This document shows, piece after piece, positions 9,001-12,000 of a stretch of 42,985 bases of DNA. The DNA comes from a virus (lineage: Duplodnaviria > Heunggongvirae > Uroviricota > Caudoviricetes): positions 1 to 42,985 of IMG/VR virus record IMGVR_UViG_2671180458_000016, one strand, 5' to 3'. A program made the position numbers. Each line of letters begins with the position of its first letter. Within the stretch, counting starts at the first letter, position 1.

Positions 9001-12000
9001 CCCTGATTACGTTCAGATGGAGATGCCTGCCAGGTACAGCCAGGCAGATTCAGAGTGGATTAAGCGGCAGTTACAGAGCCTGCCTTCCTCACTGAGACAG
9101 AAGGTCGCCCTGAAATACGCGGAGGTTTACGAAGTTACTTTTGATTCCGAGCCTGTTTCATTCCGTAAGGAGAACAGAGCGAGGCATGAAGCCAATGTAC
9201 GGCTGCGCAGGTTCGTTGAAACACACGGGCGTGCATTACAGGGGTATACGACTCAGCCGCCCCTGGCAGGAACGCAACAGCGTACCTGAATGGTGTTGGT
9301 CTTAAAGGTGACCGACGGGCTGAGACCCCACTTCTCAGGATGCACCTGTGTACTACCAAACTAGTGCGGTCATTGAGAGGGGGGGTAAGGGGGGGGTGCC
9401 CGTGTGTTAGTGCGAAGCACTGGAACGGGATCTTCCAACAGACGGGTACAGAGGTTAGGTAGATCTCGATCTAAAGGGGGGCACCCCTGAAAAAACGGCT
9501 GCATCAGCAAACTAGTACATCATGGTTAAAATATGAGTGCTGAACTGAAACTGGTACTAATCAACCTTCTGGAAGAGGAATTCGGACATGGAATGGACAA
9601 GGTCACATTCGACTACGTTCTGCAAAAGAAAATCAAATCCCTGGGCTGTGAGTTGCAACGCTGTTTCACTGTCAGGCTGAAAGGTGATCGCAAGGGATTT
9701 ATCGATCTTCTGGTTATTTCTCCCGATGGTCAGCGTTGCGCAGTTGAGGTGGATAACCGATCGCCTCGTCAGCGTTCACTGATGAAGATTCGAGCGCTTC
9801 CTGAAGGCATTTCGGGATTTGTTTTTCTCCGTGATGGCAAACATCCACAGCGTTATATCGCCGATGGTGTGGATGTCATCCGGGCGACCCGGTTTAAGTA
9901 ATCACTGTATCAGCCCTGTCATCGGGAGAATACCATGCTGAATATCAAGCCGAATTTTGCTCAGGAACGTGCGCTGAATATGTTGCGTCATGACTGGAAA
10001 ACATATCAGTCCTTCATGATGTACATGCCTACAGGGAGTGGTAAAACTGGCCTGGCGGCGTTCATCACTGCTGGTCTGGTAAGCCGTGGCATGCGCGTTC
10101 TGTTTGTCGTTCCTTATACCATTTTGATCAACCAGACAGCACAGCGCTTTGTTCAGTACGGGCTTTCCGGGGATGAAATCAGCTTTATCTGGCGTGATCA
10201 TCCCAATAACGACCCGTCACGACTGATTCAGATTGCCAGTGCGGATACGCTGATTCGCCGTGATTTTCCTCAGAATATCGACCTGCTGATTATTGATGAA
10301 GCGCATCTCCGTAAGCGCCGCATCCTCACGGAAATCGAACGACTGGTTGCAGAGGGAAATGTGAAGGTGATTGGGTTGTCCGGTACACCCTTTTCATCGT
10401 TCCTGGGGCGTTATTACCAGCGTCTTCTCAAGCCGACCACTATAGGGGAACTGATCCAGCGTGGCGAACTGAGCAATTACGAATTTTATGCGCCCACGAA
10501 ACCGGATCTGGAAGGTGTAAAAACGAAAGTCTCAATGGAGTACGGCAGGGATTACGACGAATCACAACTGGCAGAGATTATGTGCGGCGCGGATCTGGTT
10601 GGCGATATTGTCGATAACTGGCTGTGTAACGGAAGGGATTTACCGACAGTGGCGTTCTGCGTCAATAAAACGCATGCCAGCTTCGTGACCATGCAGTTCA
10701 ACAAAGCCGGAATTAACGCAGAGGTGATGGTTGCTGAAACGCCACATGATGAGCGTCAGTTAATGATCAGTCGTTTTGAAACGGGAGCGACGAAAATCAT
10801 TGTCAGCGTTGGCGTTCTGGTGGCGGGATTTGACAGTGATGTCCGGTGCATCATTTACGCACGCCCGACAAAATCAGAGATTCGCTGGCTTCAGGCGATT
10901 GGGAGAGGATTGCGTACAGCGCCAGGCAAGGAGTCATGCCTGATTTTCGACCATTCCGGTACGGTTCATCGCCTGGGATTTCCTGAAAATATTGAGTATG
11001 ACGAACTGCCCGGCAAAAACGACGGGATGCAGGTGTCATCATCACGTGGTAACGAAATTCGGGAAGAAAAACTGCCGAAAGAATGTCCGGGGTGTCATTT
11101 CATGAAACCGGCAGGTGTTTATGTCTGTCCGAAATGCGGATTTAAACCGCTGGCTGGTGAGGATGTGAACACAGATACCCGCCGCAATATCAGGAAACTC
11201 AGCAAGGACGAAAAAATTTACACCAAAAGCGACAAACAGGCCTGGTGGAGTCAGATCAAATTCTATCAGCGTCAGCGTGCCTCTCTGGGGCGACCGGTCA
11301 GCGATGGATGGTGCGCTCACACTTTCCGGGAGAAGTTCGGCGAATGGCCTGACGGGCTGAGCAGTTTTCCGATGGAAATCACCCCGGAGGTCAGTAATTA
11401 CATCAGACACAAATTCATCCGGTTTGCCAGAGGGCGTAGCCGGGCAGAGAAGATGACGGAAAAATCCCCCGAAGCGCTTTCTCTGTCCCTGCTTCATGGT
11501 GTCCGGTCTGGGGTGCCGGAAGGCAGTGAGTCGTGGCAGATCATGCAGGCAAAGCAACAACTTCAGAAAAACAGAAACAGTCTGGGTCAGTAAGATGAAA
11601 ACAGCAGAAGCAGCGAAAGGCCACTGGCCTGAAATTTTAAAACATTACGGACTGCCGCCAGTCACGGGTAAAAAGCACTTCAAAGGGGAATGTCCGGTTT
11701 GTGGTGCCAGAGGTAAGTTCCGTATTGATGACCGTGATGGCACCGGAACGTGGATCTGTGTTTGTGGTAGCGGTGACGGCATGAAACTGATCGCTCTGAC
11801 ACAAAAAAGAGCGTTTCATGAAATTTGCGCTGAAATAGACCGCATCACGGGGAATGAATACCGGAGAGATAAACCGCCTGTGATCTGTACGTCGGAAAGC
11901 CTGAGATCGCGCGTTCAGCGTCGATTTTCAGCGCTCACGGCGCTACAGGGAACATCTGGTGCTGAATATCTTCGTTCCCGTGGCATATTCAGTCTTCCGG

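Follow-up and report, generated by a model that had tools for sequence, protein, structure and literature searches.

A conserved G-run element between iteron-like sites as the candidate replication origin of a helicase-primase module in enterobacterial temperate phages

Here we describe a non-coding DNA element of a tailed phage (Caudoviricetes; IMG/VR record IMGVR_UViG_2671180458_000016), which lies between the immunity genes and a helicase-primase gene pair; the whole stretch of 42,985 nucleotides that was analysed is referred to below as the window. Comparison across related loci identifies this element as a strongly conserved, single-copy part of a helicase-primase module that is common to many enterobacterial temperate phages, including Shiga-toxin phages, and not as an inserted mobile element. 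With roughly even confidence, we take it to be the cis-acting centre of a replication module composed of a small protein (p97), an optional nuclease, a superfamily 2 (SF2) helicase and a primase, and most likely to be the replication origin of this module, in which a centre that is predicted to be prone to G-quadruplex and R-loop formation is placed between iteron-like sites. An earlier sequence-only reading of positions 9357-9516 had offered four interpretations: an origin for the helicase-primase module, a G-quadruplex-forming regulatory element, a structured RNA, or a small inserted element with a target-site duplication. The first of these appears the best supported, because the element has iteron-like bounds, is rich in clustered Dam sites (GATC), is present in single copy, adjoins the helicase and primase genes in conserved synteny, and is constrained more strongly than coding DNA.

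The non-coding segment extends from the stop codon of the 97-amino-acid p97 open reading frame (9289) to the ATG of a 122-amino-acid frame, p122 (9533), and so leads from the CI/cro region, represented on its left by a LexA-like repressor gene and a cro-like gene, to the genes for an SF2 helicase and a Toprim primase on its right. Since the sole open reading frames across it, of 40 and 46 amino acids, both traverse runs of G that differ in length between close relatives, we consider the segment to be non-coding. Reading of the sequence together with a repeat finder recovered the features that had first drawn attention to it. These included identical CAAACTAGT direct repeats at 9357-9365 and 9508-9516 (start-to-start spacing 151), tracts of seven (9379-9385), eight (9389-9396) and six (9476-9481) G residues, and an inverted repeat with arms GGGGTGCC(C) at 9393-9401 and (G)GGCACCCC at 9479-9487, which is in fact a perfect 9-nt match where 8 bp had been claimed, as well as two small hairpins between these arms, GTGC-GAA-GCAC (9410-9420) and TGGAA..TTCCA (9421-9437). 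Taken singly, the direct repeat and the inverted repeat are each unremarkable and not significant by themselves: in 5000 shuffles of 9290-9532, an exact direct repeat of at least 9 nt arose in 9% (P about 0.09) and an inverted repeat of at least 9 nt in 22% (P about 0.22). Alignments with relatives further restrict the 9-nt inverted repeat (GGGGTGCCC/GGGCACCCC) to the window's own lineage.

Three sets of loci were used for comparison. DNA-pattern scans of IMG/VR with the core of the window's element gave 90 loci, 67 of them distinct; a helicase protein search gave 80 more, with 75 IMG/VR loci used in the motif counts; and a one-genome-per-species search gave another 80, with 75 species-level loci used in the motif counts, from hosts that included Pantoea, Serratia, Yersinia, Xenorhabdus, Photorhabdus, Proteus, Morganella, Providencia, Erwinia, Pectobacterium and others. 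Gene order was the same in all sets, running from repressor, cro and p97 through the element to p122, a NUMOD4-HNH endonuclease gene or nothing, and then to helicase and primase, and about 150 related loci across Enterobacterales hold the element between p97 and the helicase-primase genes, a placement shared by about 65 DNA-pattern loci, the 75 helicase-search loci and the 75 species-level loci. By blastn, the region was found, unannotated, both in phages (phi467, Fels-1 and two from Klebsiella) and in complete genomes of E. coli, of which 58 out of 5426 had it at a median of one and a maximum of two places, with an identical prophage context at the three loci inspected. The 43-kb window holds one copy.

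These surveys bear on the idea that a mobile element resembling a miniature inverted-repeat transposable element came to lie by insertion between the modules for immunity and replication, with duplication of CAAACTAGT. Identical 9-nt direct repeats do indeed bracket a segment containing an inverted repeat in the window, but repeats of this length are matched in the shuffles at the frequency given above, the inverted repeat is not conserved, and the element is found once in the window and at a median of one copy in those E. coli genomes that have it. At none of the roughly 150 related loci does p97 abut the downstream gene, so that the search for an empty site among relatives came back negative; where species-level loci lack the G-runs, other non-coding sequence occupies the position and the site is not empty. 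With neither empty sites nor extra copies, the two CAAACTAGT copies are not target-site duplications, and they lie inside conserved 18-bp sites whose sequence varies by lineage. Insertion of a mobile element is therefore effectively refuted, and we assign it hardly any probability.

What is conserved is a core of about 130 bp of primary sequence, bounded on each side by a set of repeated sites. When six phages from three genera (those of E. coli, Salmonella and Klebsiella) were aligned, mean pairwise identity across window positions 9388-9467 was 0.92-0.95, as against 0.65-0.86 for the coding DNA on either side of the element in the same alignment, and the core is, as judged from this comparison, under selection at the level of DNA sequence, above that on the flanking coding DNA. 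Read 5' to 3' on the coding strand, the core consists of a purine-rich tract with G-runs, a mini-hairpin (in one subfamily), the motif CYTTTTCCAAC, a TAGGT/GATC block, a variable stretch and a run of A.

The most widely conserved and strictly strand-specific feature is the double G-run, which in the window takes the form G7-TAA-G8 (9379-9396, + strand) and gives the non-template strand a predicted potential for G-quadruplex formation and R-loop initiation. The sequence can be read as G3-N1-G3-N3-G3-N2-G3, in agreement with a G-quadruplex motif, and nothing else in the window reaches its G4Hunter score of 2.52, with only 0.03% of 25-nt windows scoring at least 2; the suggestion of a G-quadruplex element is thus upheld at the sequence level. 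Upstream of the helicase gene, the pattern G5+ N1-4 G5+ was found on the helicase strand at 105 of 149 loci and its complementary C-run version at none of the 149, while 1.24 Mb of adjoining DNA, searched on both strands, contained neither version. With the requirement relaxed to runs of four or more, a pair was found at 74 of the 75 IMG/VR helicase loci. The double G-run spans hosts from Escherichia to Proteus, Morganella, Xenorhabdus and Pectobacterium, and in AT-rich hosts (Proteus, Morganella, Providencia, Xenorhabdus) it is kept though most of the other sequence has altered. Since strong G-quadruplex motifs are reportedly depleted in E. coli, the maintenance of a strand-specific G6-N3-G6 motif from Escherichia to Proteus and Xenorhabdus is unusual.

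The G-runs vary in length from 5 to 8 among relatives, as expected from the earlier remark that long G homopolymers are prone to slippage. G6TAAG6 is the commonest version, and G7TAAG7, G7TAAG6, G8TAAG7, G6TTTG6, G5AAAG5 and others occur beside the G7TAAG8 of the window; divergent groups have six G-runs, and the B and C groups have only G4AG5, with a G4Hunter score of 1.9. This polymorphism fits homopolymer slippage that is tolerated within limits. At loci of the L136 type (e.g. L136 5270-5300), a short C-run that precedes the first G-run could pair with GUGGGG in varied registers (CCCCA, CCUCA, CCAC, UCCCA); it may form a hairpin that masks the first G-run, with only one side of the pairing varying.

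About 50 nt downstream of the G-runs stands the most conserved block of the element, CAGAGGTTAGGTAGATCTCGATC (CATAGGTTAGGTAGATCTC; 9449-9471), in which a tandem TAGGT-TAGGT is followed by GATC at 9462-9465 and 9468-9471. The sequence GGTTAGGTAGATCTC occurs once in the window and is invariant in nearly all of 25 representative cores; elsewhere the block takes the form GGTTAGGTAGATCAC (phage TL-2011c) or GGTTAGGT-N6/7-GATCT (other groups), and the GGTTAGGT..GATC block with its clustered GATC sites is among the most widely conserved features of the element. At least one GATC lies within 130 nt of the G-runs in 81 of 81 unique cores, at a mean of 2.0 sites where 0.61 would be expected (3.3-fold), and the window has three, at 9429, 9462 and 9468.

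The mini-hairpin, TTAGTGC-GAA-GCACTGG (9407-9423, + strand), is of the GCGAAGC type and is present in one subfamily only. Its pairing is kept in variants with GTGC/GCAC (73), GCGC/GCGC (13+1) and GCCC/GGGC (1), which amounts to weak covariation support, and it is missing from divergent groups, where G-rich sequence continues in its place. The imperfect palindrome TGGAAC-GGGATC-TTCCAAC (9421-9439), which includes the first GATC (9429-9432), is followed by the conserved CYTTTTCCAAC motif, in which CTTTTCC is nearly invariant across the 25 representatives. Because the 5' half of the palindrome changes without compensation in the L136 group, 9421-9439 is conserved as sequence and not as a stem. 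The core closes with a small hairpin region at 9476-9495 (+ strand), formed here by the G6 tract and GGCACCCC, and an A6 run (9490-9495); this region is variable in sequence and constant in position, and a run of at least five A residues, which counts among the element's most widespread conserved features, was found 60-150 nt after the G-runs in 56 of the 81 unique cores.

A group of Photorhabdus and Xenorhabdus loci without G-runs (L294, L302, L303, L313, L314, L286) shares a non-coding motif, CTGTGTCTTCTGGCTGTGG..GGTTAGGGGATCACTAGGGCTGA.CATGAAAAAACAGCCAAGTGA, which lies about 1.0-1.3 kb upstream of the helicase gene (at 0.64 kb, and with its 3' part only, in L286) and retains a GGTTAGG..GATCAC block. 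From this resemblance, the motif may be a version of the element that lacks G-runs.

On either side of the core lie the repeated sites from which the direct repeats derive. In the window, these are two 18-bp sites of the G type, with the consensus GTAC-N10-GTAC: GTACTACCAAACTAGTGC on the left (9350-9367) and GCATCAGCAAACTAGTAC on the right (9501-9518), each of which encloses one copy of CAAACTAGT. Most relatives likewise have one GTAC-N10-GTAC site per side, with differing inner bases. In other relatives, these are replaced by tandem 8-bp units of roughly TYTRRAYG, which give autocorrelation peaks at lags of 8, 16 and 24 (z = 13.3, 9.5 and 4.4); counted by eye, the left flank has as many as seven units and the right flank three or four. 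TL-2011c has flanks of yet another type, a 19-nt inverted repeat. Flank types swap among loci whose core is unchanged, and different types may be combined on the left and right of a single locus, as in L087, L063, L298 and L318. The core is thus constant while the repeat modules that flank it are interchangeable, contrary to the prediction from a target-site duplication. An outer stem pairing the left and right flanks was considered and rejected: the complementarity derives from palindromic GTAC/CTAG sub-sites, and its pieces are not nested in flanks of the T type, i.e. those with 8-bp units.

The exchange of flanks would also agree with the region being a hotspot of gene exchange or a nuclease target, in which case the adjacent PD-(D/E)xK or HNH genes would be of homing type or directed against origins, and the variety of flanks would stem from an arms race or from mosaic junctions and not from initiator binding. 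Such a hotspot would account for a slot that holds a PD-(D/E)xK nuclease, a NUMOD4-HNH endonuclease or nothing, and for flank types whose shuffling follows neither the core nor the replication proteins; origin-directed nucleases are, moreover, reported from the conflict between ICP1 and PLE (PMC8263062). It leaves unexplained, however, both the stronger-than-coding constraint on the core and the strand-specific G-runs, and flank type is uncorrelated with the nuclease gene present. We therefore regard a hotspot as an improbable explanation.

The interpretation as a structured RNA held only for a neighbouring hairpin and was not supported for 9357-9516 itself. Folding of 25 representative cores by RNAalifold gave essentially no consensus (-1.0 kcal/mol, 5 pairs), Rfam searches at gathering and permissive thresholds gave no match to the element and nothing above E-value 5 in 9200-9650, and the inverted repeat is, as noted, specific to one lineage. 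Folds of the single sequence were marginally better than those of shuffles, with Z-scores of -1.7 and -1.9 for the two strands. Two candidate pairings did not survive comparison. A three-way-junction stem, GUGCCCGU/ACGGGUAC, switching to GGAGUUG/CAACUCC, seemed compensatory in two groups and breaks down in L136, L183 and L185, whose 5' strand is kept although the 3' strand is altered; and a perfect 11-nt complementarity (13 nt with G.U pairs) between 9220-9230, the p97 codons for ETHGR, and 9398-9408, just after the G-runs, is found in the window's lineage only. Since no conserved fold emerged and the candidate stems fail on comparison, the core is conserved as primary sequence. Together with the periodic or dyad flanks and the enrichment of GATC, this points to an element that is likely recognised as DNA.

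The part of the RNA interpretation that held concerns a hairpin just after the p97 stop codon and outside 9357-9516, with a stem at 9295-9301/9310-9316 and a conserved 8-nt loop, TTAAAGGT, at 9302-9309 (+, sense strand). Across 35 distinct versions, 91.4% of cells were paired, as compared with 75% in shuffles, none of 500 of which reached this value; six of the seven pairs change on both sides, and in slid controls the value was 30-48%. Because G.U pairs outnumber A.C pairs by 30 to 4, the hairpin forms on the sense strand, i.e. in mRNA or in + strand single-stranded DNA. The loop motif UUAAAGGU was found at 75 of 75 IMG/VR helicase loci and at 26 of 75 species-level loci, where, barring a few stray loop matches in atypical positions, the hairpin is limited to loci from Enterobacteriaceae, Yersinia, Serratia and Pantoea. 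Some relatives, such as L170 and L183, have a tandem pair of such hairpins; in the window there is no second copy, as the two other matches to TTAAAGGT are both stemless. Upstream of the hairpin lies the p97 gene's 3' end, which is variable. Tests against the nut and put sites of lambda-like phages found one hairpin copy and not two, no boxA, no GNRA-like pentaloop and no two adjacent stem-loops. The hairpin at 9295-9316 may be a separate signal at the mRNA level. Promoter and terminator scans of four loci found nothing consistent inside the element and predicted no terminator between cro and the element; for this reason, the element is probably transcribed with the operon.

The chief rival to the origin follows from these observations. 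In this alternative, the element would be a cis-acting leader of the early-right mRNA, in which the hairpin, together with a tract that is G-rich or forms an RNA G-quadruplex, would govern the downstream genes (nuclease, helicase and primase) at the level of expression, processing, stability or read-through, and in one version the Arg-rich p97 would bind the UUAAAGGU hairpin by analogy with lambda N on boxB. The strong covariation of the hairpin with its bias towards the sense strand, the invariable position of the G-runs on the coding strand, the co-transcription expected of an operon with no predicted internal promoter or terminator, and the fact that p97 with its invariant Arg-rich helix always precedes the hairpin are all in keeping with a leader, as is the established finding that C-poor untranslated RNA is a poor substrate for Rho. 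A leader accounts less well, however, for a core that lacks conserved secondary structure and has about 95% sequence identity without compensatory variation, and it provides no RNA rationale for the GATC enrichment; 8-bp tandem arrays or dyad flanks are typical of protein-DNA recognition, and variants from Proteus, Morganella, Xenorhabdus and Photorhabdus keep the G-runs without the hairpin. The signal is also present as a single copy without boxA, unlike nut and put systems. On balance, we think a leader possible but rather unlikely. It is nonetheless compatible with an origin, since the hairpin could act in RNA and the core in DNA.

An RNA acting in trans, i.e. a small RNA released by processing of the operon's transcript in the manner of DicF from the Qin prophage, has in its favour a position in an immunity-proximal operon, which is also that of DicF, and a stable hairpin on the 5' side. 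The element nevertheless matches no Rfam family, has no predicted promoter or terminator of its own and no conserved fold in its core, and would offer a purine-only seed with no obvious target logic, so that a small RNA seems very unlikely.

For the element as a replication origin, the features found at the sequence level are repeated short sites on both flanks and a location that adjoins replication genes, and the G clusters lie on the non-template (coding) strand of the operon, as R-loop formation calls for. If so, the flanking repeats would act as iterons bound by a replication protein, and early rightward transcription from the cro promoter would cross the element. Pairing of G-rich RNA with the C-rich template, along with folding of the displaced G-rich strand into a G-quadruplex, would stabilise an RNA-DNA hybrid or an unwound bubble, and the DNA thereby opened would give the RadD/PriA-like SF2 helicase and the primase a place to enter, a part that would otherwise fall to an AT-rich unwinding element, while the GATC cluster would couple firing to the methylation state. 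We infer these steps, that of the hybrid or bubble by analogy with mitochondrial CSB II (conserved sequence block II), ColE1 RNA II and T4 oriF. In its fullest form, the proposal is of a transcription-activated origin, in which a G-quadruplex/R-loop replaces the AT-rich unwinding element and serves as the loading site for an SF2 (RadD/PriA-like) helicase and a zinc-ribbon primase. This would make it a counterpart of CSB II common to temperate phages of Enterobacterales, including Eru1-type Stx2a phages, with flanks and optional nucleases that set replicon specificity or mediate conflict between phages; we offer this as a tentative scheme, and a rather unlikely one.

Several observations weigh against an origin of this kind. 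No extended AT-rich DNA-unwinding region was found in the element, which has only a run of five to eight A residues and a G-rich centre. Computational criteria for R-loops ask for roughly 40% G or more, and the sequence that follows the G-runs contains only about 30-36% G (36% in the 160-nt segment). The minimum of the cumulative GC skew lies near 7-8 kb, a position that is confounded by gene orientation (divergent operons). Where the helicase is most distant, at about 18 of the 75 species-level loci, there is no G-run pair within 1.3 kb, which implies that the G-runs are dispensable in some loci; several of these retain a GGTTAGGGGATCAC-like block. Mixed flank types within one locus are odd for a single initiator, no domain of p97, helicase or primase segregates with flank type, and Tandem Repeats Finder detected nothing in T-type flanks, whose units are too degenerate. 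Finally, the element was found in only one record of the plasmid collection and, being nearly absent from plasmids, provides no natural minimal replicon to cite. Origin activity is something we infer entirely from sequence comparison.

The arrangement invites comparison with known origins. Lambda iterons are about 18-19 bp long with dyad ends, and the GTAC-N10-GTAC sites resemble them in both respects. The origins of staphylococcal pathogenicity islands (SaPIs) have 6-12 penta- or hexanucleotide iterons, half on each side of a central region (PMC9371898). They are similar to the element in having short repeated sites on both sides of a centre and in adjoining primase and helicase genes. In contrast to SaPI and lambda origins, the centre of the element is G-rich and predicted to be prone to G-quadruplex formation and not AT-rich, it lies upstream of the helicase gene and not downstream of or inside an initiator gene, and the helicase is of SF2 and has no recognised winged-helix origin-binding domain.

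CSB II has the form G6AG8, and shares with the element two long G-runs, 1-3 nt apart, on the non-template strand downstream of a promoter. There, a hybrid RNA/DNA G-quadruplex is reported to stabilise an R-loop and to create the replication primer (PMC3488243, PMC4176368). The system, polymerase and host are entirely different, and the element has flanking repeats and GATC sites whereas CSB II has none. The RNA of ColE1 has a G-run that pairs with a C-run in its template, and both ColE1 RNA II and T4 oriF/oriG are cases in which transcription through the origin leaves a persistent hybrid that is used in initiation, a likeness that we propose by analogy. The core of the element has no conserved RNA fold, however, whereas ColE1 uses a specific RNA fold and T4 an AT-rich unwinding element.

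The IncQ plasmid RSF1010 encodes the RepA helicase, the RepB' primase and the RepC initiator, and its oriV has iterons and a G+C-rich stretch. The phage module is similarly made up of a helicase, a primase and a small candidate initiator, p97, with iteron-like sites, a G+C-rich stretch and hairpins at the putative origin. For oriV, conserved priming hairpins, ssiA and ssiB, are reported (PMC8567376). These are found on opposite strands in RSF1010 and on one strand here, and the two systems have no relation in sequence or protein family. The hairpin after p97 is reminiscent of lambda nut boxB and HK022 put, as it has a conserved loop, lies in the early-right transcript after cro and is placed beside a gene for a small Arg-rich protein. 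It differs from them in its 8-nt loop, UUAAAGGU, in having no GNRA-like pentaloop and no boxA, in being present once per phage and not twice, and in that p97 is unrelated to N. Lastly, the Neisseria pilE G-quadruplex is reported to function in dependence on an R-loop formed by transcription of a small RNA (PMC13463697). Both are bacterial G-quadruplex motifs, but the pilE element initiates recombination and not replication, and is unrelated in sequence and context.

The p97 gene (8996-9289, + strand; phrog_852) directly precedes the element at practically every locus examined. The protein falls into 263 clusters, which without exception come from Enterobacterales and in which the Arg-rich helix R-ENRARHEAN-RLR-FV is invariant; p97 matched no Pfam or NCBIfam family and gave no informative PDB match by sequence or fold. 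In the AF2 model, which has a predicted local distance difference test (pLDDT) score of 67, it forms three helices, of which the Arg-rich helix would be the last. Between the element and the helicase gene lies the gene for the optional nuclease p122 (9533-9901, + strand), which is confidently predicted to have the PD-(D/E)xK nuclease fold: the AF2 model has a pLDDT of 87.8, and its best Foldseek matches are Bax1, followed by NucS/EndoMS, McrC and VRR-NUC. Bax1 is the nuclease partner of the SF2 helicase XPB, and the location of p122 beside an SF2 helicase is reminiscent of the XPB-Bax1 pair. Since the slot is occupied elsewhere by a NUMOD4+HNH_3 endonuclease (e.g. L005 3159-3761) or is empty, p122 is dispensable for the module. 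In Klebsiella phage KPP5665-2 (L004 3030-3527), the coding sequence annotated as gp40, 'helicase protein', begins within the conserved non-coding core and extends into the p122 homologue; its start codon has probably been mis-called, and its product name is probably wrong.

The SF2 helicase (9935-11593, + strand) has ResIII/DEAD and Helicase_C domains and is RadD-like, with a C-terminal zinc finger. It also has weak similarity to PriA and RecG, which act on branched and R-loop DNA. The primase gene (11598-12563, + strand) encodes Zn_Ribbon_Prim, DUF7146 and Toprim_3 domains with a zinc ribbon of the T7/P4 type. Because its homologues begin with MKTAEAAKG, the start is probably at 11598 and not at 11496, which would overlap the helicase gene by about 100 nt.

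Elsewhere in the window, two regions gave Rfam matches above the gathering score, namely 18090-18296, matching the small RNA STnc100 at 167 bits, and 13961-14135, matching at 103 bits the antitoxin RNA sok from a module of the hok/sok type. The region 32000-35000 is high in G+C (0.56-0.61), encodes a collagen-like Gly-X-Y repeat (e.g. 33450-33530), and has the second-highest G4Hunter scores of the window (1.7-1.9).

The window's helicase is 68% identical to Eru1A of phage TL-2011c, and the layout of TL-2011c is the same, with a p97 homologue, a non-coding stretch containing GGGGGTAAGGGGG and GGTACATAGGTTAGGTAGATCAC, a p122 homologue, Eru1A and Eru1B. The p97 homologue lies at L258 1663-1956 (NC_019442 18662-18955), where the RefSeq record has no annotation, and the Eru papers count three eru1 genes and mention neither the p97 frame nor gp29, the p122 homologue. 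The TL-2011c-type variant of the element was found in 98 deposited phage records, mostly of Stx2a-converting phages and including P13374 (from an O104:H4 strain), and in none of the 25 of these records that were listed does an annotated feature underlie the match. The two papers that define the Eru modules name the genes and describe neither an origin nor this element, and the searchable literature, whether queried by topic, with the name Eru1 or with the literal sequence, yielded no account of it; the element thus appears to be undescribed.

Lambda O and P are absent from phages that have this medically relevant helicase-primase module, and the Eru1 module is carried by the Stx2a phages of the outbreak strains O104:H4 and O103:H25. 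The finding draws attention to p97 as a candidate initiator or RNA-binding partner, and makes the element a tractable bacterial system in which G-quadruplex- or R-loop-assisted initiation may be studied; if such a mechanism is true, the element would be a considerably more unusual phage origin. If the element is the origin, it would provide a concrete 200-bp target at which to study, and possibly to block, the replication that amplifies the toxin genes after induction.

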